DNA of 64,000 bases from Myxococcota bacterium (lineage in GTDB: Bacteria > Myxococcota_A > UBA9160 > PR03), in contig JBFIML010000012.1 in the NCBI GenBank assembly GCA_041611735.1, forward strand, positions 15,433 through 79,432, given 5' to 3'. Each line of letters opens with the position of its first letter. The first letter of the stretch is position 1. Of this stretch, positions 17,364 through 59,177 are shown piece by piece. The notes beneath the pieces were generated by a model. That model did no database searches. It saw only the letters and a program-made list of their open reading frames with translations, and was not told where the DNA came from. Made by a program: the position numbers and the translations under genes.

Positions 17364-18532
17364 GCGGAGCCTCCGGGGGCGAGCACGTCACGGGCATGCG
17401 CGCGGGCCCAGGCGTCCACGGCCCGCACGTCCTCGAGATCCCGCAGCGGCGCATGCGCCGAACGGGCCAGATGGGCCTCGAGCACGCGGCCGGCGGTGGC
17501 TGCGATGGCCGGAAACGGTACCGCGCGCTCCAGGAAGGCGGCCACCGCCACCTCGTTGGCGGCGTTCAACACGCAAGGCGCCGCCTCGTCCCCCGCCAGC
17601 GCCGCGTAGGCCAGGTCCAGGGCGGGGAACCGCTTGCGGTCGGGCGCCTCGAAGTCGAGCCGCCCGAGCGCGGCCAGATCGAGACGCGGAAGCTCGAGGG
17701 GCAGGCGCTCGGGATGGGAGAGCGCCAGGGCGATGGGAATACGCATGTCCGGCAGGCCGAGCTGCGCCAGCACGGATCCATCCGCGAGCTCGACCAGGGA
17801 ATGCACGATCGACTGGGGATGCACGACCACATCGACCCGCTCCGGAGGCACGTCGAACAGCCAGCGCGCCTCGATCACCTCGAGCCCCTTGTTCATGAGG
17901 CTGGCCGAGTCGATGGTGATCTTGGGCCCCATGTCCCAGTTCGGATGGGCGAGCGCCTCGTCCAGCGTCGCCCGGACGATGCGCTCTGCGGGCCAGGTGC
18001 GGAACGGTCCGCCCGAGGCGGTCAGGACCAGCCGCGCCACGTCTTCCTTGCGCTGGCCCACCAGCACCTGGAAGAGCGCACTGTGCTCGCTGTCCACCGG
18101 GAGCAGGCGCGCGCCCCGCTCCCGCGCCTCGCGCATCACCAGCGCGCCCGCCATGACCAGGACTTCCTTGTTGGCCAGGGCCAGATCGCGACCGGCGCGC
18201 AGGGCGGCCAGCGCCGGCGGGAGGCCCACCGCCCCCACCAGCGCCGCCACCACCAGGTCGGCCTCGTGGGTAGCCACCGCCTCGAGGCCCTCGGGGCCGT
18301 GAAGCACCGGGGGTGCCTCGGCGCCCAGGTGCGCCCGCAGCGCGGCGGCGGATTCCGCATCGGCCACCGAGACCAGGGCGGGGCGATGACGACGCACCTG
18401 GGTGGCCAGCTTCTCGACACTGCGTCCTGCCGCCAGGGCGGTGACGCGAAATCGCTCCGGGAAGGCTCCCGCCACCGCCAGGCACTGCTCGCCCACGCTG
18501 CCCGTGCTCCCGAGCACTGCCAGCCGTTTCAC
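17360..18532 (-). CDS. dxr: 1-deoxy-D-xylulose 5-phosphate reductoisomerase
   Basis: ORF 17360..18646 trimmed to GTG 18532 (GTGA overlap with the uppS stop). Motifs VKRLAVLGSTGSVGEQ, LANKE, DSEHSALFQ, NKGLEVIEA. 390 aa. Confidence 0.93.
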   Translation of the reverse strand: MKRLAVLGSTGSVGEQCLAVAGAFPERFRVTALAAGRSVEKLATQVRRHRPALVSVADAESAAALRAHLGAEAPPVLHGPEGLEAVATHEADLVVAALVGAVGLPPALAALRAGRDLALANKEVLVMAGALVMREARERGARLLPVDSEHSALFQVLVGQRKEDVARLVLTASGGPFRTWPAERIVRATLDEALAHPNWDMGPKITIDSASLMNKGLEVIEARWLFDVPPERVDVVVHPQSIVHSLVELADGSVLAQLGLPDMRIPIALALSHPERLPLELPRLDLAALGRLDFEAPDRKRFPALDLAYAALAGDEAAPCVLNAANEVAVAAFLERAVPFPAIAATAGRVLEAHLARSAHAPLRDLEDVRAVDAWARAHARDVLAPGGSA

Positions 18533-48760: not shown

Positions 48761-49765
48761 GTGTCGTCGGCTCGCTTCGCCGCCGCCCTGGCAGCGGCGC
48801 TGTTCGGGATCGCCTCCACTTCCGGGCCTGCAGCTGCCTGCTCGGTCTGCCTGGCCGGCGATCCCCTCTTCTCGAAGCACGGAACCAGCGCCCAGCAGGA
48901 GGGCGAGGTGTCCATCTACCTGCAGGCCCAGGGCTGGCGCAAGGACAGCGGGCTCCTGCCCCACGCACCCGAAGGCGAGGAGCACGAAGAAGAGCACGAG
49001 CACGAGGAGGGGCACGAGCGCAATCGCAGCCAACGGCTCGATCTCTTCCTCTCCTGGACGCCCCTGGCCCGGGTAACCCTGAGCCTCGACATCCCGTATG
49101 CCTTCAACGCGATCGAGGAGATCGAAGCGGGAGCGAGACAGACCAACCGGCTGCATGGGCTCGGCGACGTGGCGCTGCTGGGGAGCTTCGTCCTGTGGCG
49201 CAACCGCGATGTGCTGCCCTCCTTCTGGATCGAGGGACGCACCTTCCTCAAGGCCCCGACGGGCCGCAGCACGCGCCGGGAAGCGGGCTTCGTGGACCCC
49301 CACCTCCAGACGGGCACCGGCTCCTGGGACTTCGGCCTCGGCCTGGCGGCGGTGCACCGACGCGCCTGGGGATCGCTCTACACCAGCGTCTTCTACCGGG
49401 AGAACACCGAAGGAGACTTCGGAGACGTGGACTACGAGTTCGGCGACGTCCTGCTCGCGAACGCGGCCCTGGAGCTTCCGGTGGGCCACGCGCTCCGGCG
49501 GCCGGCCCTCGACTGGCTCACGGTGGGCGCCGAGCTCAACTACCGCTGGTCGGGCTTCGACCGGCTGGAGGGCCAGCGCTACGCACACAGCGGGGGCTCG
49601 ATCCTGTACGCGACGCCCGCCCTGCGCTTCCGACTCCCGTTCTCCCTGCGCGAGCGGCCGGCATCCCTGCGCCTGGCGCTCCAGCTCCCACTCACCCAGT
49701 CGTGGCTGAACGGCAGCCAGGACGAGAAGGAGGTCTGGACCGTGGGCCTCCTCCTCCCCTTCTGA
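48761..49765 (+). CDS. outer-membrane beta-barrel protein with N-terminal CxxC and His/Glu-rich segment (MetA-pathway/transporter-like barrel)
   Basis: GTG 48761 with GGAGG 8 nt upstream (ORF-track GTG 48737 is an alternative). Signal peptide SSARFAAALAAALFGIASTSGPAAA, then CSVCLAGDP. His/Glu-rich stretch EGEEHEEEHEHEEGHE. Alternating beta-strand pattern with GLGDVALL and TGTGSWDFGLG motifs. C-terminal ..VGLLLPF (terminal Phe). Confidence 0.7.
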   Translation: MSSARFAAALAAALFGIASTSGPAAACSVCLAGDPLFSKHGTSAQQEGEVSIYLQAQGWRKDSGLLPHAPEGEEHEEEHEHEEGHERNRSQRLDLFLSWTPLARVTLSLDIPYAFNAIEEIEAGARQTNRLHGLGDVALLGSFVLWRNRDVLPSFWIEGRTFLKAPTGRSTRREAGFVDPHLQTGTGSWDFGLGLAAVHRRAWGSLYTSVFYRENTEGDFGDVDYEFGDVLLANAALELPVGHALRRPALDWLTVGAELNYRWSGFDRLEGQRYAHSGGSILYATPALRFRLPFSLRERPASLRLALQLPLTQSWLNGSQDEKEVWTVGLLLPF

Positions 49766-49766
49766 C

Positions 49767-50276
49767 GTGTTGCGTCTGCTGGCGAGCGCCCTGCTGATCC
49801 TCGCTGCGGAGGCCGCGGCCCAGCCGCTCCAGCTCGAGAGCCTCGACGGCGAGCCCGTGACGCTCGGACTGCGCGAGGCCGAGAAGGCCCTGGTCGTCCA
49901 CTTCTGGGCCACCTGGTGCCCGGAGTGCGTCGAGGAGCTTCCCGTGCTGGCCGCGGCCCTCCACCGCTGCGCCGCAGGCCCGGTGCGCATCGTGACGGTG
50001 AACGTGGGCGAGAGTCGGGATGCGATCGTCCGCTACCTGGAGCGCCAGGGCCTCCAGCTCCCGGTCCTGCGCGACCCGCGCGGCCGGGTCTGGCGCAGCC
50101 TCGGCGGCCTGGGGCTGCCCACCAACCTGGCCTGGACGCCCGCGGAGCGGCGCATCGACGTGGGCCCGCGCGACGCCCCCGCCTGGGACGAGGCCTTCAC
50201 GGGGCTGGGCTGTCCGCCGCGGGACGCGGACGCTGCCGGCAGGCCGCCCGCGACCCCCCCCGAACGGGTCCCCTAG
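49767..50276 (+). CDS. periplasmic TlpA/ResA-like thiol:disulfide oxidoreductase (thioredoxin fold)
   Basis: GTG 49767, 1 nt after the barrel stop. Signal peptide MLRLLASALLILAAEAAA. Active site VVHFWATWCPECVEELP. Downstream ..LGLPTNLAW.. carries the cis-Pro. 169 aa. Confidence 0.85.
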   Translation: MLRLLASALLILAAEAAAQPLQLESLDGEPVTLGLREAEKALVVHFWATWCPECVEELPVLAAALHRCAAGPVRIVTVNVGESRDAIVRYLERQGLQLPVLRDPRGRVWRSLGGLGLPTNLAWTPAERRIDVGPRDAPAWDEAFTGLGCPPRDADAAGRPPATPPERVP

Positions 50277-52714
50277 CCGCGCTTCCCGTAATCGCAGACG
50301 CCGGTCGGGAAGATCCCCTCGAGGCGGGCGCGCTGGGCCGGGCTGGGCACCCAACCACCGTAGACACCCCGCTGGATGGCGAGCCAGACCGGCTGGAGAG
50401 GGCACTTGAACACGCCGCCCGCGATCGAGCCGCCGGCCACCATGCGGGAGGTCTGGTGGAGCGGGAAGCGTTCCGTGCAGGGCCCCGGAGGCTTCGGGTC
50501 CAGGACACCGTTCCAGACGCCGTCGCCCGCGGCGATCTCCTCGCCGGTGGTGGTGAAGCAGCGGTCCACGGCGCCGGGTGGCTTGTTCCCGGCCACGCCG
50601 CGGCCGGGGTTCGCCCGCAGGTTCGCCATCCACTCGTCGATCACCTCGAAGGCTTCGGGAGTCTGGTCGAACCGGCGCTCGGGCCGGGCGTCGGTGAACC
50701 AGATCACCTGGTTGTCGTGATGGCCCTGCCCGTCCAGGAGGCGCTGTCGGGTGGCGAAGGACTGGTGGCTGTGGTGCATGTCGAGCTCGTCCTCGAGGTA
50801 GTGGCGCCAGTCGATCACGGGGATGTCGATGCGGCCGTGGAAGACGTGGCCGGAGTCGTGGGCGGCCCGGATCGCCAACGGATCCCCCTCCCTGCGTGGG
50901 GCGGGCGTCACGCCCCCGTCCGGGCTCAGGTTCATGTTGCGCGAGCTCCACGGGTCGAAGTTCGCGGCGTCGTTGCCCACGAAGGGAAAGCCCTCCCGGA
51001 CCTGCTCCCGACTCGGCTTCCAGCTCCCCACGTTCGCGTTCAGGTGCAGGAATTCTTCGGGCGTGATCTGCCCGTTCCGCAGGGCCTGGAGACCGTACTG
51101 GACTCCCACGTTGTCCCAGGGCACCCGCGCGAAGCCGGACTCGTCGAGTCCGTAGACGTTGACGAGATCGCCCCAATGGGTCCACTCCACCCCCTCGACG
51201 CCCTGGGCCAGCTTGTCGAGGTCGGAGACGTTCGTGTACGTCGGGTTCAGGATCAACGGGGAGAGTCCGAACCACGCCCGGCGGCACTCCGTGAGCGCCG
51301 GCGTCGACGACGTGCGGTCCGGGACCGGCAGTCCGAGGCCGGCGTAGATCACGTACAGGATGGTCCATTGCAACGTCTCGCCGCTACTCAGGTTCGCCGG
51401 CGCCCGGGAGGCATGGAGGCCCTGGATGAGGCTTCGGTTCTCGATGTGGAGCCACTTCGGGTTGTCGGTGTCGATCACGTCGAAGTAGTGCTCGAGGAGC
51501 TCGCAGTCCCCCACGTGGATCGTCTGGGTGACCATGTCCGAATAGGAGTACTGGGGGATGGCGGCGTCGAGCAGTCCCGGGTGGTTCTGGGCGTAGACGT
51601 ACTGCTGGATGGCCCCGCCGGAGCCGCCCACGCCCACCGTGTAGAGCGGCACCCCGTGCGTCTCCACGAAGTGCTCCTTCAGCATCAGGGCCGTCTCGCC
51701 GCCGAGCTGGAGGTTGTAGTGGGTATTCGTACGCAAGCCGGTCGAGTTGAGCACCGCGTAGCCGAGCCGCAGCAGCTCGTCGGGCAACATGGCACTGGTG
51801 CTGGGAGTGCCCTGGGTGCGACCGATCGCGACGCCTCCCTGGAGGCTGAAGACGAGACGTCCGTTCCAGAGCGAGTCGTCGGGCTGGTCCGGGTCCGTCT
51901 CGGCGGTGGGCGCGAGCATCGCGACGCTATAGAGGAAGCGGTTGCTCGTCCCACGCTCCCAGCGCACGATGTAGGGCACGGTCCGTCCGTCCAGGGTGGT
52001 GGTCGTCGCCACGTCGCCGGGCAGCGGCTGGCTCGGGTCGGCCAGCGCCTTCCACACCCCCGTGGTGCTGCGGTAGCGGTATTCGATGCGCTCGGACACG
52101 CCGCAGTTCTTGCTCCAGCCGAGGATCTCGGCCTCGGCGGTCGGGTAGCCCCTTCCGTCCCGCGGGTAGTTGCCGCTCGAGTCCTCCCGCGCCACCGGGA
52201 TCCCGATCCCGTCCTGGTTGTCGATGATCGGCTGGCCCAGGCCCGCACGGGCGGTGGTGCAGACGAAGGGCTGCTGCTGGGGACCCGAGAAGATCGGTCC
52301 GCTCGCCGGATGGTTGACGAGCGTGGCCCGGGCCGCGTTGCCCCGGCCGTTGCGGTCGGGAGCCACGCGCAGGACGTTCTCACCGAGGGCCAGCCCCTGC
52401 ACGAGCCCCACCAGGGCGCGCCTGCCGGCCTCGGGCTCGAACGCCGCCGTGACGTCCTGCTGGCCGAGCAGGACGCGAACCGCGTTCAGCTGCTGCGCGT
52501 TCGGAACCCGCACGCGCACCAGCACATCGCCCCCGCTCACCTGGTGGGGGGCGCTCGAGAGGGTCTCGATCGAGAACCCCCCGCCGGGCTTCGGGCCCGG
52601 CGTCACAGCCCGCGGGTTCGCGGGGGCCGGCACGGCAGCAAGGGCCGCCACCACGAGGCCGAGGCCGGACCAGAGAGAACGGGACGACCGGAACCAGGAG
52701 GACCGGGACTTCAT
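50273..52714 (-). CDS. secreted DUF6351-like protein (Ig-like N-domain + tannase/feruloyl-esterase-like alpha/beta-hydrolase region)
   Basis: ORF trimmed to ATG 52714. Signal peptide MKSRSSWFRSSRSLWSGLGLVVAALAAVPAPA. Sequence ..VSGGDVLVRVRVP..VGLVQGLALGENVLRV.., nucleophile-elbow-like GVGGSGGAIQQ, C-terminal Cys pairs (..FKCPLQP..GVCDYGK). 813 aa. The family name is from memory. Confidence 0.65.
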   Translation of the reverse strand: MKSRSSWFRSSRSLWSGLGLVVAALAAVPAPANPRAVTPGPKPGGGFSIETLSSAPHQVSGGDVLVRVRVPNAQQLNAVRVLLGQQDVTAAFEPEAGRRALVGLVQGLALGENVLRVAPDRNGRGNAARATLVNHPASGPIFSGPQQQPFVCTTARAGLGQPIIDNQDGIGIPVAREDSSGNYPRDGRGYPTAEAEILGWSKNCGVSERIEYRYRSTTGVWKALADPSQPLPGDVATTTTLDGRTVPYIVRWERGTSNRFLYSVAMLAPTAETDPDQPDDSLWNGRLVFSLQGGVAIGRTQGTPSTSAMLPDELLRLGYAVLNSTGLRTNTHYNLQLGGETALMLKEHFVETHGVPLYTVGVGGSGGAIQQYVYAQNHPGLLDAAIPQYSYSDMVTQTIHVGDCELLEHYFDVIDTDNPKWLHIENRSLIQGLHASRAPANLSSGETLQWTILYVIYAGLGLPVPDRTSSTPALTECRRAWFGLSPLILNPTYTNVSDLDKLAQGVEGVEWTHWGDLVNVYGLDESGFARVPWDNVGVQYGLQALRNGQITPEEFLHLNANVGSWKPSREQVREGFPFVGNDAANFDPWSSRNMNLSPDGGVTPAPRREGDPLAIRAAHDSGHVFHGRIDIPVIDWRHYLEDELDMHHSHQSFATRQRLLDGQGHHDNQVIWFTDARPERRFDQTPEAFEVIDEWMANLRANPGRGVAGNKPPGAVDRCFTTTGEEIAAGDGVWNGVLDPKPPGPCTERFPLHQTSRMVAGGSIAGGVFKCPLQPVWLAIQRGVYGGWVPSPAQRARLEGIFPTGVCDYGKRG

Positions 52715-52900
52715 GGGGGGTCTCCGCTGCGGGGTCCCAGGAGCCGGGAGCTGCCCGGCTTCTCCACCCGCGACGAGCCCGATCCTACCACCGCAGCCGG
52801 CCGGAGCCGAAGCCTCCGATGGAGAGGGGCGGCAGCGCGTCCCCGCCTCGCGTGTGCCAGCCAGGCCCAAGGCCCGACCGCAGCCGCCAGGACCCTTGAC

Positions 52901-53917
52901 TCACCAGCGATTGCGGGCCTCTTCGGCCCAGCCGAGCAGTCCGTCGACGGCGAGCGTCATGCCGTCCTCCAGCTCCAGTCGCCCCTCCCAGCGTCCGAAG
53001 CACTGGTGCACCTGCGTCGACAAGAGGCCCAGCCTCGTCCGAGCGTGGCGGTCGTGGTGCGGGGTCAGCGTTACGTCGATCCGCCTGGAGTCGGGCGTCC
53101 GCACCCGCCAGGGACCCAGCGGCGCGTCCCAGTCGTACTCCCAGATCAGCTCCTCCGAGATCTTGTGGAGCCGGCCGTCGATGCACAGGGCGTTCTCGGT
53201 GAAGCCGGTGCCCTGGGTCCACTTGCCACCCAGCTGGAGACCGATCGTGTGCCCGTCGCTCGAGCCGGATGCCGATCCCCAGTTCCAGCGCGTGGCATAG
53301 GGCCAGATCCCGCGACCGAAGTCCAGCGTGCCGTAGGCTCCGCTGTGCGGTCCCAGGCGATGGACACTCTGCCCGATGCGGAGCGTGCCTGCCGCGGGTC
53401 GCGTATTCTGCTTCGAGGTGTACTGGAACCGCCGCGGGCTCCAGGGAATCACCACGCCCAGGGATTCGTGGCCGGCGGGCCGCTGGACGAAGAGGTCGAC
53501 CTCGATCGCGCCGTGACGCCGATGGGAGGCTCGCGCCGAAAGCCCGGTGCCCTCCGGGTGCTCCGCGATGTGCAGCAGCAGGTCCCGACTCGTGTAGCGC
53601 GTCTCGCCCACGTCGGCGCGGTCCGCCAGGCGGAACCCCCGCGCGAAGGGGACCCGGGCGACGCGCTCGATCTCGACCCCGGAAGCCCGCTCGAGCACCC
53701 ACAGGGCCGCCACACCCAGGTAGTCCACATCCGCATAGGTCAGGGCAACCACCAGATCGTCGCTGGTCACGCACCAGTAGTCCCAGCGCTTCTTGCGGCC
53801 CGGGGCGCCGCGCAGGTTGGCCCGGTGCAGGGGCACGCGCGACCAGCCCCGGGCACGAGGGTTCAGCCGGCCGCGCGCGTCGCACAGCTCGACCGGCTCG
53901 GTGATCTCGGGCTCCAT
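52901..53917 (-). CDS. DUF2804 family protein
   Basis: Motifs ..RKKRWDYWCVTSDDLVVALTYADVDYLG.., ..RWNWGSASG.., C-terminal ..GWAEEARNRW. Start is ATG 53917 (alternatives ATG 53944, TTG 53980). No signal peptide seen. Confidence 0.75.
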   Translation of the reverse strand: MEPEITEPVELCDARGRLNPRARGWSRVPLHRANLRGAPGRKKRWDYWCVTSDDLVVALTYADVDYLGVAALWVLERASGVEIERVARVPFARGFRLADRADVGETRYTSRDLLLHIAEHPEGTGLSARASHRRHGAIEVDLFVQRPAGHESLGVVIPWSPRRFQYTSKQNTRPAAGTLRIGQSVHRLGPHSGAYGTLDFGRGIWPYATRWNWGSASGSSDGHTIGLQLGGKWTQGTGFTENALCIDGRLHKISEELIWEYDWDAPLGPWRVRTPDSRRIDVTLTPHHDRHARTRLGLLSTQVHQCFGRWEGRLELEDGMTLAVDGLLGWAEEARNRW

Positions 53918-54004
53918 GGGTCCGACCGGAGCGGCCCGGGGCATCGGGCCAGCATGCCCGCCGCCGCACGGACTCCGCAAGCGGGCCTCGTCCCGACCGG
54001 GACG

Positions 54005-56230
54005 CTAGGGCGAGCGGCGCCCCGCGGAGTCCACGAAGATGGGCGAGGACCAGGCGCGCGCCTGGTCCGGGCCCAGGCAGTCGTCGCCCGTGCCGGCCCG
54101 GCACGGGCGCACGCGCACGCAGGCGCCCGCAGCGTCGCGTTCGCAGCGCAGGCCGTCGCCGTTCACGTGGGGGGTGGGCTCCTGGAGTGCGCGCGCGTAG
54201 TACAGCGTGTCGCGCCCGGCCCCGGGATGGTCCGGGTCCTCGAACTCGAAGACGCAGCCCGGGGCGCCGGCCGGGCAGTCGTGCACCCGCCAGGGGTCCT
54301 CGATCAGGCTGGCCACGTCCTCCCCGACCTCGACCCGCGGCCGGATGCGCACGACTTCGATCCGGGTGATCGGGTGTCGCTCGTCGCTCGGGTGGTAGCA
54401 CTCGTTCTTGCAGAGCAGCACCAGCCGCTCCGCGCCGAGCCCCCGCTCCGCGTGCTCCGGGCAGCCTGGTCGCTGGCGGAACGAACCGACGGCCCGTACG
54501 CGGAAGCGGGGCACTTCGGCCATGCGCACCTCCCCACCCATGGGGACCGGTGCCTGGCTTCCGGGCGCATTCAGCAGATCGAACCAGAGCAGGATGCGCG
54601 GGCCGGACGTCCCATACACCTCCTTGCGCAGGAGCCCCTCCCAGACCGCGTCGCGCGAGCGTCCGCTCGCGTGCACGGCCACGAGCCCTCCCGTGTAGTA
54701 GAAGCTCGCCGAACGCTCGACGTCGCCGCCGGGCAGGAGCAGCAGCTTCGCCGGGTCCATGGGCCGCGACGCGGCGGCGGGCTGGCCCCGGTCCGGGCCG
54801 AAGCGCTCCCGTGCCCGGGCGGCGCCGACCCCCCAGGCGTCGGTCATGCCGTCGGGCGTGAACTCCTTGTAACCGCTGGCGGGCCGCGCATAGTGGGTAT
54901 CGCTGGAGGCGATCATCCCGAAGCGGAAGCCCGCCTTGCCCGCGCGCGCAGCCAGGGCGTACTGGGTGCTGCCCCCCGGCCGGTAGTCGAAGGCCGGCTG
55001 GAAGCAGTCGACGCACTGCCCGGCCTCGAGCCAGTCCTCGGCGGTCTGACCCGGCACGCTGAAGCGCTCCGCTCGCCCGGCCGCCAGGTAGTGGGCCCGG
55101 GCGGTCTCCGCGCGCAGCTCGCACTCGGCTTCGGCCTGGCCCTCGGCCGTGCAGCGCTGGTGGATGATCTCGCCGGCGCGCCAGCAGCCCGGGACGAAGC
55201 CGTCGCGGGGCGCCGGGCAGCTCGGCCGGCCCTCCACGTCGTTGGCGACGTGACGCCAGGGGCGATACTCCTCGGAGTTCCCGTGACCCGAGTAGACCTC
55301 CACCAGCGTCTGCCGGCTCGGGTCGTGGTTGCCCTCGGCGAGCTGCTTGTCCCAGGTGACGCCGGGCGGCGTCGTGTTGCCCCAGGCGTTCCCGTGCGGG
55401 ATCACCAGCGCATCGAAGCCCCAGTCGGCGAGCTTCGCGAAGAGCTCGCGCGGGGTTGCCGCGGCCTCGGCGCAGTCCGGCGGGAGCTCCCGCACCGGCA
55501 CATCCCCCGGGCAGACCGGCATGCCGGCCAGGGCCCGCCGCTGGGCGCCGAAGTCGAAATACTGCTTGCGGTTGCCGAAGTCGATCAGGCTCATGGCGAG
55601 CACGCCGCCGCGCGCTCCCCCGGCCCGCATGGCGTCGAAGGCCACCCCGGCTGCCGAGATCGGCCGGGTCGGGAGCCGGTCCTCGGCCGTCTCGCGGAAG
55701 ATCACGTTCTTGTGGCCGTAGTGGATCTCGGGCCGCGTGCCCATCTGGGTCCACTCCCAGCCGCTGAAGGCCACCAGGTCCGGGTCCGCGGCATGGCCCG
55801 CCACCGCGTTGCATTGGCGGACGGCGGCCTTGGTCTCGCTCCATAGCGCCGACGTCAGGCTCTCGGCGTGGTCGTTCAGCGAGAAGAAGTCGAGCGCTGA
55901 GCAGAAGCGCGCAAAGTCGCAGGCGTCGGCGGGGGGATGCGCACCCTCCCCTTGCATGAGCGGCAGGCTGTGCAGGAAGGCATCGATCGAATAGGTAGTG
56001 TGCACGTGCAGGTCGCCGAACAGGATCTGACGCCCGCGGGGCTCCTGGCCGACTGCGCCGGCCCCCTCGCGCTGGGCGCGCTCGTGCTGGGCGACGACCG
56101 CCGCGGGGCGTGGCGCGTCCGCCAGGGCTCCGGGCGCCTGCGGCTCTCCGAAAGCGCCGAACCAGATCGCGGCCACGTAGCCGAGCGCAGCGATGAGCAG
56201 CGCGCTCAGGACCAGGATGGCGCTACGCAT
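54005..56230 (-). CDS. DUF3604 family protein, paralogue A (PHP-like metal-dependent hydrolase fold; N-terminal membrane anchor; Cys-rich)
   Basis: ORF 54005..57262 trimmed to ATG 56230 (TGATG junction with paralogue B). N-terminus MRSAILVLSALLIAALGYVAAIWFG. Motifs ILFGDLHVHTTYSIDAF, ..LNDHAE.., ..VIPHGNAWG.., ..SGHGNSEEY.., ..IASSDTHYARPASGYKE.., ..EVYGTSGPRILLWFD.. 741 aa. Confidence 0.8.
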   Translation of the reverse strand: MRSAILVLSALLIAALGYVAAIWFGAFGEPQAPGALADAPRPAAVVAQHERAQREGAGAVGQEPRGRQILFGDLHVHTTYSIDAFLHSLPLMQGEGAHPPADACDFARFCSALDFFSLNDHAESLTSALWSETKAAVRQCNAVAGHAADPDLVAFSGWEWTQMGTRPEIHYGHKNVIFRETAEDRLPTRPISAAGVAFDAMRAGGARGGVLAMSLIDFGNRKQYFDFGAQRRALAGMPVCPGDVPVRELPPDCAEAAATPRELFAKLADWGFDALVIPHGNAWGNTTPPGVTWDKQLAEGNHDPSRQTLVEVYSGHGNSEEYRPWRHVANDVEGRPSCPAPRDGFVPGCWRAGEIIHQRCTAEGQAEAECELRAETARAHYLAAGRAERFSVPGQTAEDWLEAGQCVDCFQPAFDYRPGGSTQYALAARAGKAGFRFGMIASSDTHYARPASGYKEFTPDGMTDAWGVGAARARERFGPDRGQPAAASRPMDPAKLLLLPGGDVERSASFYYTGGLVAVHASGRSRDAVWEGLLRKEVYGTSGPRILLWFDLLNAPGSQAPVPMGGEVRMAEVPRFRVRAVGSFRQRPGCPEHAERGLGAERLVLLCKNECYHPSDERHPITRIEVVRIRPRVEVGEDVASLIEDPWRVHDCPAGAPGCVFEFEDPDHPGAGRDTLYYARALQEPTPHVNGDGLRCERDAAGACVRVRPCRAGTGDDCLGPDQARAWSSPIFVDSAGRRSP

Positions 56231-58482
56231 CAGGGCTCCCGGGGGGCCTGGTCCAGGAAGATCGGCGACGACCAGGCGCGTTCGGAGACGGGCGCCAGGC
56301 AGTCGTCCTCGAAGGGCGTGCGGTAGTCGCCATGACAGGGCTCGGTGCGCACGGCGCGGCCCTCTGCGTCGAACGTGACGCGCAGCTGGGCGCCGTTCAC
56401 CGCCGGCGTCGCCTCCTGGATCGCGCGTGCGTAGTAGAGCGCGTCGCGCCCGAGGGTCGGGTACCCGGGATCCTCGAAGCGCACCACACAGCCGGAGGGA
56501 TCCGGGGCGCACTCGAAGCGCTTCCAGGGATCCTCGATCAGGGCGTCCACCTCCTCGCCGGCCTCCGTCTGGGGGCGGATGCGGATCACCTCGATGGCGA
56601 CGATGGCCAGGCGGCGATCGCCGGGGTGATAGCACTCGCCCCGGCACAGGCGCTCCAGGCGAGCGGGCGCCAGGCCGTTCACGCTCTCCGGGGGGCAGCC
56701 CGGCTTCTGCTCCAGGGAGCCCGCGGCCCGCACCTCGAAGCGCGGCACCTCCCCGAATTCGAGCTCGCTGCCCATGGGCGCCGGCCCCTCCGGAGTGTTC
56801 AGGAGATCGAACCAGAGCAGGATGCGCGGGCCGCTGGTCCCGTACACCTCGCGGCGCCGCAGCGCCTGCCAGATCGCCGCGCGGCTGCGACCCTCGCTGT
56901 GCAGCGCCACGAGGCCCCCCGTATAGAAGAAGCTCGCCACCCGCTCGGTGTCCCGGTCCGTGAGGCCCGGACGGATCTCGACCTGCTGGGGCACGCGAAG
57001 ATCCGCTTCCGACTTCTGGCGCACGAGACCCTCGTAGAAGGCCGAGCGCACACCGGTAGCGTCGGTCATCTCGCGCCGTGCGTACTGCTTGTAACCCGTG
57101 CCGGGCCGCGCCTTGTGATTGTCGCTCGAGGCCAGGAAGCCGAAGCGGAAGCGCAGGGGGTCGCCGTCGGCGTCGGGCTCCGCCGGGTTGGCCAGCGCCA
57201 TGGCGTACTGGACGCTCTCCTTGGGCCGCAGGCTGAAGGCGGGCTTGAAGCAACCGCGGCACTGGCCGCAGTCGAGCCAGTCCGCCGCGCGGGTGTCGGG
57301 AAATACCCGGTGCGGCGACACGTTGGCTGCCAGGGCCAGCCGCCTTGCCTCCCGGACGCGGGCCTGGCAGTCGGCCTCCGGCAGGTCCCCGCAGCGCTCA
57401 CCCATGATCTCGCCGGCGCGCCAGCAGCAGGGCAGGAAGTCGGGGGTCGGCTCCGGGCAGATCGGCTCGCCGTTCGCGCCCCACTCGACCTCGCGCCAGG
57501 GGCGGTACTCCTCCGAGTTGCCGTGGCCCGACATGATCTCGATCAGCGTCTGGCGCTCGGGGTCGTGCAGGGTGCGGGTGAGCTGCTTCTCGAAGGAGGT
57601 GCCGGGCGGCGTGTAGACGCCCCAGGCAGTGCCGTGGGGAATCACCAGGGCCTCGTAGCCCCACTGGTCGAGCTTCTCGAACAGGAGATCGGGCGTGGGG
57701 GCCGCCTCCAGGCAGTCTGCCGGCAGGGAACGCGTGTCCACGCCCCGGGCGCAGCGCGGCGTCTCCGCCAGCGTCTCGATCAGCCACAGGAAGTCCGCGT
57801 ACTCGCGCCAGCCGAGGGGGTCCAGCCAGCGCAGCCCCCCGACCGCACCGAAGCCGGAGACGAGCCCGCCCTCCCCTTCCACCGAGCCGATCGGTCGCGC
57901 CGGGAGCTCGTCCTCGCCGGTGCCTGCAAAGATCACGTTCTTGTGGCCGTAGTGGGTCTCGGGGCTCAAACCCACTTGGGTCCACTCGAAGCCCGCAAAG
58001 GCGACCAGGTCGGGATTCTCCGGGTCCCCCGCCCGCGCGTTGCACTGACGTACGCTCTCCTTCTCCGCCGCCCAGTGCGCCGGGGTCAGGTTCTCGGCGT
58101 GATCGGTGAGGGCATAGAAGTCGAGTGCGGAGCAGTAGCGGGCGAAATCGCAGGCGTCCGCCGGCGGGTGGGCACCCTCGCCGTTCACCAGCGGCAGCGA
58201 GTACAGGAAGGCGTCGAAGGACCAGGTGGTGTGGACGTGGAGATCGCCGAACAGGATCGTCTTTGCCGCGGGCACGGACGGCGAGCGGGACGCGAGCGCC
58301 TGGCGCGCGCCCGCCTGGGCGGCGGCGGCCGCCGCCAGGGCGGCCTCCGGACGGCGCTGGCCCTCGATCTGCCCCGCCGTCCGGTCCCCGCCGCACCCCA
58401 GGCCGAGGGCAACGAGCAGCCAGGCGCCCGAGCGGGTCGCGAGCATCCCCGGGAGCTTGCCAGAGCTGCCCGGGGCCGGCAC
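56230..58482 (-). CDS. DUF3604 family protein, paralogue B (lipoprotein signal; Cys-rich)
   Basis: GTG 58482 (or ATG 58446). Lipobox ..AWLLVALGLGCGG. The same motif series as paralogue A (ILFGDLHVHTTWSFDAF, LTDHAE, VIPHGTAWG, SGHGNSEEY, LASSDNHKARPGTGYKQ, EVYGTSGPRILLWFD). Roughly 55-60% identical to A by eye. 750 aa. Confidence 0.8.
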   Translation of the reverse strand: MPAPGSSGKLPGMLATRSGAWLLVALGLGCGGDRTAGQIEGQRRPEAALAAAAAAQAGARQALASRSPSVPAAKTILFGDLHVHTTWSFDAFLYSLPLVNGEGAHPPADACDFARYCSALDFYALTDHAENLTPAHWAAEKESVRQCNARAGDPENPDLVAFAGFEWTQVGLSPETHYGHKNVIFAGTGEDELPARPIGSVEGEGGLVSGFGAVGGLRWLDPLGWREYADFLWLIETLAETPRCARGVDTRSLPADCLEAAPTPDLLFEKLDQWGYEALVIPHGTAWGVYTPPGTSFEKQLTRTLHDPERQTLIEIMSGHGNSEEYRPWREVEWGANGEPICPEPTPDFLPCCWRAGEIMGERCGDLPEADCQARVREARRLALAANVSPHRVFPDTRAADWLDCGQCRGCFKPAFSLRPKESVQYAMALANPAEPDADGDPLRFRFGFLASSDNHKARPGTGYKQYARREMTDATGVRSAFYEGLVRQKSEADLRVPQQVEIRPGLTDRDTERVASFFYTGGLVALHSEGRSRAAIWQALRRREVYGTSGPRILLWFDLLNTPEGPAPMGSELEFGEVPRFEVRAAGSLEQKPGCPPESVNGLAPARLERLCRGECYHPGDRRLAIVAIEVIRIRPQTEAGEEVDALIEDPWKRFECAPDPSGCVVRFEDPGYPTLGRDALYYARAIQEATPAVNGAQLRVTFDAEGRAVRTEPCHGDYRTPFEDDCLAPVSERAWSSPIFLDQAPREP

Positions 58483-58556
58483 GGAGGCAGCTGCGCTTCA
58501 TCCAGCGCCCCGGCGTTCGGGTTCGGGATCCAGGCGGCTGGGCTACGCTCCCGGTG

Positions 58557-59081
58557 ATGCGGGGCTTCGGGCTCTCCCTCCTCTCGCTGTGCATCGCCGG
58601 TCTGGCGGGGGCGGAATCGCTCGCGCCCGGCTCCCGGGCTCCTGCCTTCTCCCTGCCGGGCTCGGACGGGCGCACCCACACCCTCGCCGAGCACCTCTCG
58701 AAGCGAGGGGTCGTGCTGGCCTGGTTCCCCAAGGCCTTCACCCCCGGCTGAACCGAGGAGCTGAAGGCGCTGCGTGACAGCGCCGAGCAGATCGCCGCCT
58801 TCGACGTCGCCGTCTTCATGGTGAGCCTGGACGATCCCGAAAGAAACCGCGAGTTCGCCGAGGCGTTGGGAGCGCAGCACGTGGTTCTCTCGGACCCGTC
58901 CGGTGAGACGGCCAAGGCCTACGGCGTCACCGCCCTGGGTGGCCTGTACGCGCGACGCTGGACCTTCTACATCGACGCGGCGGGCGTGATCCGCGAGATC
59001 GACAAGCAGGTCGATGTGAAGACCGCGGGCCAGGACATCGCCCGCACCCTCCACAGGTTGGCCTTCCCGAAGGCTGAGTAG
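58557..59081 (+). CDS. exported Bcp/AhpC-TSA-type peroxiredoxin with in-frame TGA (58749-58751) at the peroxidatic Cys position: predicted selenocysteine-containing peroxiredoxin
   Basis: ATG 58557. ORFs 58125..58751 and 58818..59081 share one frame with no stop in between. The joined product is MRGFGLSLLSLCIAGLAGA|ESLAPGSRAPAFSLPGSDGRTHTLAEHLSKRGVVLAWFPKAFTPG-U-TEELKALRDSAEQIAAFDVAVFMVSLDDPERNREFAEALGAQHVVLSDPSGETAKAYGV..RRWTFYIDAAGVI.. It is colinear with Bcp (..YPKAMTPGCT..). Confidence 0.8.
58761..58790 (+). promoter_or_regulatory. SECIS-like stem-loop downstream of the in-frame UGA
   Basis: CUG-AA-GGCGCUG-CGUGA-CAGCGCC-GAG-CAG. A 7-bp perfect upper stem (58766-72 / 58778-84), a 5-nt apical loop containing GU, and a 3-bp lower stem. 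The stem starts 14 nt (9 nt with the lower stem) after the UGA. Confidence 0.6.
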
Positions 59082-59177
59082 GCGGGCGGCCGCCAAGCTC
59101 CGGCAGCGATGGCCGGCCGCGCCCAGGCCACGAAGCAGCCGCGGGCCCGGAGCCGAGCGACCCGCGGATCCCCGCCG

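Follow-up and report, generated by a model that had tools for sequence, protein, structure and literature searches.

An exported peroxiredoxin gene of a Myxococcota bacterium, annotated as two pieces, is probably decoded through an in-frame UGA as a selenoprotein

Peroxiredoxins (Prx) carrying selenocysteine (Sec) form an already established family. In 2005, 43 Sec genes assigned to COG1225 were placed among the "known" selenoproteins of the Sargasso Sea (PMC1088965), in 2006 twelve Sec peroxiredoxins were counted in bacterial genomes, three of them in the myxobacterium Anaeromyxobacter dehalogenans (PMC1794560), and a 2026 review has an entry "Peroxiredoxin (Prx), PF00578, TxxU" in its list of experimentally supported families (PMC13188914). 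The present study analyzes one locus in a stretch of 64,000 nucleotides (the window) from a Myxococcota bacterium (assembly GCA_041611735.1, contig JBFIML010000012.1, positions 15,433 to 79,432 of the forward strand), where automatic gene calls split a gene into products of 64 and 87 amino acids. From sequence comparison we consider it highly probable that a single functional gene here encodes an exported Sec peroxiredoxin of the PrxQ/BCP type and that it is genuinely decoded with Sec; recoding of a TGA stop codon almost certainly makes selenocysteine the catalytic residue. COG1225, to which the Sargasso Sea genes were assigned, is the Bcp COG. The gene belongs to the TxxU family as described in the three papers (PMC1088965, PMC1794560, PMC13188914), fitting it feature by feature in its AhpC/TSA fold, its T62-P-G-U65 sequence, a bacterial selenocysteine insertion sequence (bSECIS) just downstream, widespread Cys homologues, and presence in deltaproteobacteria and myxobacteria; this placement is by described features and at the level of the family. 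The features of the gene are as follows.

58557..59081, plus strand: complete predicted selenoprotein gene for an exported PrxQ/BCP-type peroxiredoxin, 174 codons and TAG from ATG 58557
58557..58613, plus strand: predicted signal peptide of the Sec-translocon type, residues 1-19 (MRGFGLSLLSLCIAGLAGA / ES), with a basic n-region, 17 hydrophobic residues in a row and a site resembling AxA
58728..58751, plus strand: active-site motif P58-K-A-F-T62-P-G-U65 (PxxxTxxU), with P58, T62 and G64 invariant and Cys at column 65 in the Cys forms
58749..58751, plus strand: UGA probably read as selenocysteine, residue 65, at the peroxidatic position, from TGA or TGC at the same codon in orthologues and from identical assemblies
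58766..58784, plus strand: bacterial SECIS core hairpin with a 7-bp stem and a 5-nt apical loop, from covariation, a covariance model and minimum free energy (MFE)
58956..58958, plus strand: conserved catalytic Arg, R134; R134, W135 and T136 are invariant in the alignment, and R134 aligns with the Arg of structure 3drn
59079..59081, plus strand: true stop TAG, from translation of the frame and an end point shared by the orthologues

Translation of the single frame at 58557-59081, for which GTG 58554 is an alternative start codon, gives one internal stop, the TGA. The preliminary description had held that the open reading frame (ORF) track divides one secreted Bcp-type gene in two, with a Sec-encoding UGA at the peroxidatic site, and both parts of this are upheld. 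ORFs 58125..58751 and 58818..59081 lie in a common frame, the 66 nt between them (TEELKALRDSAEQIAAFDVAVF) are 22 open codons free of stops, and GC content at third codon positions goes from 0.92 ahead of the TGA to 0.90 past it. With Cys put in place of TGA for the protein domain searches, Pfam AhpC-TSA (PF00578) matched residues 25-147 (E=2.7e-29, 102.1 bits against a cut-off of 26); the match covers the whole of this range, and therefore the domain runs uninterrupted over the TGA. A Redoxin domain match covered residues 24-155. A large protein collection yielded 1141 relatives, the best of them annotated as "peroxiredoxin Q/BCP" and full-length at some 175 residues, and full-length orthologues were 47-64% identical to the window protein. 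The TGA column corresponds to the peroxidatic Cys in about 120 full-length homologues among the matches listed and falls inside an invariant AWFPKAFT-x-G-C-T block of the alignment; PxxxTxxU is also given as a motif description in the review (PMC13188914). The automatic annotation could instead be taken at its word, with two small proteins, a secreted peptide of 64 residues and a C-terminal fragment of 87 residues from ATG 58818, but a complete thioredoxin fold is found in neither, the Pfam domain is continuous across both, the 22 intervening codons are conserved as protein in all orthologues, and ATG 58818 is an internal residue in full-length homologues, which leaves this explanation scarcely credible.

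Conservation across species carries much of the argument. Scanning GTDB with a single genome for each species gave 80 orthologous loci, in which the codon at the Sec site was TGA in 55 (46 by motif search and nine via the covariance model) and TGC in the other 25; in all orthologues at least 80 open codons follow the site, and in every TGA form the protein sequence there is conserved. Alignment with Cys-containing orthologues had been proposed as a check on the gene, and in it the frame past the TGA and R134, W135 and T136 are kept. Represented among the TGA forms are Myxococcota and "delta" metagenome-assembled genomes, Acidobacteriota/Vicinamibacteria, Gammaproteobacteria (Pseudohongiella, Azotimanducaceae) and a few Planctomycetota. 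It might be argued that the locus is a pseudogene, an ordinary Cys peroxiredoxin struck by a TGC to TGA nonsense mutation, with a downstream frame that has not decayed; a single base separates the two codons, close relatives (L010, L014, L016, L019) are Cys forms, and gene callers give the two pieces. This would not account for the same TGA in 55 of 80 species from several phyla, for intact downstream frames with the catalytic Arg, Trp and Thr retained, for third-position GC that is still 0.90 after the TGA, or for a covarying hairpin specific to TGA forms, described below, and we regard a pseudogene as very unlikely. For a sequencing or assembly error at 58749-58751 there is nothing specific to cite beyond the generic possibility of a single-base mistake, and against it stand the TGA of the orthologues, the 87-residue C-terminal ORF found in 64 blocks of the indexed collection, and six independently assembled SRA runs in which the whole gene is identical to the window; the chance of an error is practically negligible. 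The standard code is in use, with TGA terminating 20 of the 32 Pfam-supported genes in the window. Recurrence of the TGA, identical assemblies and a standard code therefore make pseudogene, error and reassigned code all very unlikely.

Two further observations concern variation at this locus. The Logan contigs L081-L086 (SRR29257357-SRR29257491) each show one difference from the window over about 1.4-1.5 kb, outside the Prx gene, and all annotate the gene as 64 and 87 amino acids. In a neighbour-joining tree, the Cys forms L010, L014, L016 and L019 were a single clade nested among 22 Sec forms (window included), which suggests a Sec-to-Cys conversion within the Myxococcota branch, while in the other branch Planctomycetota were mostly Cys forms and Acidobacteriota and Gammaproteobacteria almost all Sec forms.

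Just past the TGA, positions 58766-58772 (GGCGCUG) pair with 58778-58784 (CAGCGCC) around the loop CGUGA (58773-58777), 14 nt separating the TGA from the stem and 21 nt from the loop, with a weak CUG/CAG-type extension beyond the 7-bp stem. Both this hairpin and its SECIS-like geometry had been claimed in the preliminary description, and both held up on comparison with published criteria, which for a bSECIS call for a loop of 3-9 nt with a stem of 4-16 bp, G within the first two positions of the loop, spacing of 16-37 nt and MFE of at most -7.5 kcal/mol (PMC13188914, Fig. 2). The hairpin agrees with all four, having a loop of 5 nt on a stem of 7 bp, GU at loop positions 2-3, spacing of 21 nt and -16.1 kcal/mol. 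In 47 Sec-form sequences 93% of cells in the helix were paired and five of the seven pairs showed compensatory changes, with a covariation score of 0.36 versus 0.12 in column shuffles (none of 500 reaching 0.36) and no higher than 0.11 in a control with the 3′ arm slid by one to three columns. The loop is closed by G:C in 22 sequences and by C:G in 20, a switch in which a D to E change in the peptide and a synonymous Leu codon move together, and stem variants among the Sec forms include CGUUC/GAACG and CACUG/CAGUG. Sec forms have CG[U/G]GA as their loop, with CGU, CGG or AGG as its Arg codon, which places G[U/G] at loop positions 2-3. Sec forms averaged 6.8 of 7 stem pairs and Cys forms 4.1, and those Cys forms that keep the loop Arg mostly use CGC and are without the stem, such that the stem is specific to TGA forms. 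A covariance-model check of the region had also been suggested; a model trained on 42 Sec forms, with the window left out, scored the hairpin site at 63.9 bits (E=1.2e-17), the sole significant match in the 64 kb, with held-out Sec forms at 30-58 bits and Cys forms at 7-33 bits.

Elsewhere in the window the covariance model matched only 17703-17735 (plus strand; 7 bits, E about 2), a GC-rich hairpin that has a loop of 9 nt and lacks a TGA context ahead of it, and that is regarded as a chance match. In four Vicinamibacterales loci (L030, L032, L036, L056), the 7-bp stem is kept about 17-40 nt past the TGA with its 3′ arm one codon over, giving an 8-nt loop (e.g. CGUGAGCA) instead of 5 nt; these forms are natural variation of bSECIS loop size inside one family.

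Several observations weigh against Sec decoding and need to be set beside this evidence. No selA, selB, selD or tRNA-Sec occurs within the 64-kb window: ARAGORN found two tRNAs there, neither of them tRNA-Sec, and Pfam scans of about 38 window ORF segments returned only housekeeping and transport genes and no Sec genes. Support from folding of the single sequence is only moderate, since a 45-nt stretch at -16.1 kcal/mol had z=-2.24 with 3 of 200 shuffles equally good, and a 71-nt stretch had z=-0.04; the longer fold is uninformative because the genome is 72% GC, and comparative tests were used instead. The hairpin also overlaps a conserved peptide (ALRDSA / SLRESG), meaning that its conservation is partly at the protein level, a concern addressed by the contrast in the hairpin between Sec and Cys forms. 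Finally, Rfam searches (at gathering thresholds over the whole window and permissively over 58500-59150) gave only tRNAs and chance eukaryotic matches, a negative that is uninformative, as Rfam has no usable bacterial SECIS model and none that recognises this hairpin.

These points bear most directly on the possibility that the UGA is recoded to something other than Sec, whether through near-cognate insertion of Cys or Trp, through a Cys-charged tRNA(Sec)-like tRNA that uses the hairpin, or through genome-wide reassignment. Sec recoding has natural variants, and the search for Sec machinery covered the 64-kb window. In addition, a JGI gene call for the homologue P0003 (L087:530-1075) has W at the site (FTPGWTQEL). 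The DNA of P0003, however, is TGA followed by the hairpin GGCGCUG-CGUGA-CAGCGCU, and its W is an artefact of the translation table; therefore some public "full-length" proteins of the family hide a Sec codon behind W. Reassignment is further contradicted by the use of TGA as a terminator in the window, and both the G[U/G] of the loop and the spacing from UGA to loop are traits of a SelB-dependent bSECIS (PMC13188914). Recoding to another residue is accordingly quite unlikely, and insertion of Sec is the reading we prefer.

Beyond Sec itself, the protein had been described as exported and of the 1-Cys type. Export was judged by sequence features; cleavage would probably follow A-G-A, near A19/E20. 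Of 56 Sec-form sequences (the 55 orthologues and the window), 53 begin with a signal-peptide-like N-terminus, as do Cys forms, so that predicted export is a trait common to the whole family, Sec and Cys forms alike. Reading C12 as a lipoprotein cysteine was rejected, as L-S-L-C is no lipobox and homologues do not share the Cys. The 1-Cys assignment likewise stands: the mature window protein is free of Cys, as is every member of the Myxococcota branch, and U65 is followed by T-E-E-L-K, with L at +4 and K at +5 and the resolving Cys at +5 absent. The sister branch (Acidobacteriota/Gammaproteobacteria/Planctomycetota) has a Cys at +4 (UTxEC).

Comparison with other peroxiredoxins places the protein outside several described groups. 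PrxU of Eubacterium acidaminophilum (NF040737) is also a peroxiredoxin with Sec at the peroxidatic position, but it is a different subfamily (its model gives the window protein 34.2 bits, with a cut-off of 270) and is an experimentally supported case according to the review (ref. 83 of PMC13188914), whereas support for the window protein is computational. E. coli-type Bcp (NF006960) is the best NCBIfam model, yet the score of 73.4 bits lies below the equivalog cut-off of 140, and that enzyme has a resolving Cys at +5 (atypical 2-Cys) which the window protein is without. The Prx-like UxxC, Prx-SUH (CxxU) and AhpC/TSA-like (UxxS) families are likewise thioredoxin-fold selenoproteins matching PF00578-type models, but their motifs differ from the TxxU followed by T-E-E found here, and scores were 24.7 bits against 298 for Prx-SUH (NF045827) and 28.8 against 120 for the SelL-related model (NF040769). 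Identity as PrxU, Prx-SUH, UxxC Prx-like or E. coli-type Bcp was therefore rejected on model scores under their cut-offs and on the motif. The best structural relatives are 3drn (Sulfolobus solfataricus Bcp1), 1xvw/4x0x (Mycobacterium tuberculosis AhpE) and 2cx3 (Aeropyrum pernix BCP), at E=7.6e-18 to 8e-12, Cys-type BCP/PrxQ and AhpE structures that share the motif, as PxxxTxxC, and the catalytic Arg but carry Cys and not Sec. AhpE is a 1-Cys enzyme, and the structurally solved BCP/PrxQ and AhpE enzymes are cytoplasmic.

The novelty claimed in the preliminary description holds in part. Export and the lack of a resolving Cys are borne out and hold throughout the Myxococcota branch, while Sec peroxiredoxins with TxxU have been catalogued since 2005 and the divergent pairing with DUF3604, also offered as distinctive, proved incidental (see below). 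A literature search for an exported or periplasmic Sec peroxiredoxin found nothing relevant, and one for PrxU yielded nothing of use. The signal peptide and the Cys-free mature protein, features of the window clade, are not mentioned in the surveys of the TxxU family (PMC1088965, PMC1794560, PMC13188914), and the clade differs from that family as described in having Sec in 55 of 80 species representatives, mostly from soil and sediment phyla (Acidobacteriota, Myxococcota). Export of the clade, the Cys-free Myxococcota branch and Sec as the majority state are not stated in these three papers and may be considered modest additions.

The genes upstream of the Prx gene are divergent from it, two DUF3604 paralogues coming first, then DUF2804 and DUF6351.

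56230-58482, minus strand: DUF3604 paralogue, with its start at 58482 facing the Prx start at 58554/58557 (plus strand)
54005-~56200, minus strand: DUF3604 paralogue, in tandem with the 56230-58482 copy
52901-54004, minus strand: DUF2804 gene, member of the minus-strand four-gene cluster
50273-52900, minus strand: DUF6351 gene, tannase-like, member of the minus-strand four-gene cluster (50273-58482)

Downstream and convergent are phosphoenolpyruvate carboxykinase (PckA), a TreT-like glycosyltransferase and a short-chain dehydrogenase. Although the divergent geometry of DUF3604 and Prx is real, it is not conserved: tblastn with both DUF3604 copies, DUF2804, DUF6351, PckA, TreT and the TlpA-like protein described below found no match within 3 kb at the 80 loci, where the Prx query, as a positive control, matched 80 of 80. 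A functional DUF3604-Prx pair is thus rejected, with DUF3604 beside none of the 80 orthologous loci, and as judged from these comparisons the pairing is incidental. All-vs-all clustering of neighbour ORFs found no family common to more than 13 of the 80 loci, and neither a sigma-70-like promoter nor an intrinsic terminator was detected around the Prx gene. A scan of the window for in-frame stops flanked by coding signal otherwise returned only antisense or adjacent-gene artefacts. Other genes in the window are pyrG, rpsI, ilvBC, rseP, uppS, frr, tsf, rpsB, secA, recN, nadK, an AcrB-type pump and chrA. About 8 kb from the Prx gene, the ORF at 49710-50273 (plus strand) encodes an exported-looking protein of thioredoxin/AhpC-TSA fold, TlpA/ResA-like, with a W-C-P-E-C motif.

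A mechanism may be proposed from these features. The UGA at 58749-58751 would be decoded and not read as a stop, as its conservation indicates, with the hairpin at 58766-58784, its loop 21 nt past the UGA, acting as a bSECIS to recruit SelB and Sec-tRNA(Sec); selenocysteine would be inserted as residue 65 and translation would continue for 109 more codons. The signal peptide would then route the protein through the Sec translocon, with cleavage at the predicted A19/E20 site, and in the cell envelope the U65 selenolate, in an intact P58/T62/U65/R134 site, would by homology reduce H2O2 or organic hydroperoxides and become a selenenic acid. Because the mature protein is Cys-free there would be no internal resolving step and an external reductant would be needed; as for 1-Cys peroxiredoxins, recycling would presumably draw on a thiol donor from outside, most plausibly a periplasmic thioredoxin-like protein. 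The exported WCPEC protein at 49710-50273 might be such a recycling partner, though this is speculative. It is also possible, though doubtful, that the Myxococcota branch represents a distinct, as yet undescribed mechanistic class, a Cys-free "1-Sec" peroxiredoxin exported through the Sec translocon, with either a dedicated envelope reductant or a sacrificial or relay role as an oxidant sensor.

The findings leave the current understanding of Sec recoding unchanged, and have consequences mainly for annotation and for the biology of the bacteria concerned. Correction of the annotation, whether of a split gene or of TGA rendered as Trp, is called for in the orthologues of at least 55 species. 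The Sec and Cys forms, with a near-identical peptide and a differing hairpin, provide a clean natural data set for the requirements of a bSECIS. If the "1-Sec" class were true, the clade and its UTxEC sister would be among the most widespread overlooked extracytoplasmic selenoenzymes, with Sec in about two thirds of representatives (55 of 80). An extracytoplasmic, Cys-free selenoenzyme would probably join the antioxidant repertoire of Myxococcota-like bacteria, and the implication is that these, along with many Acidobacteriota and Gammaproteobacteria, may need selenium for peroxide defence of the envelope.

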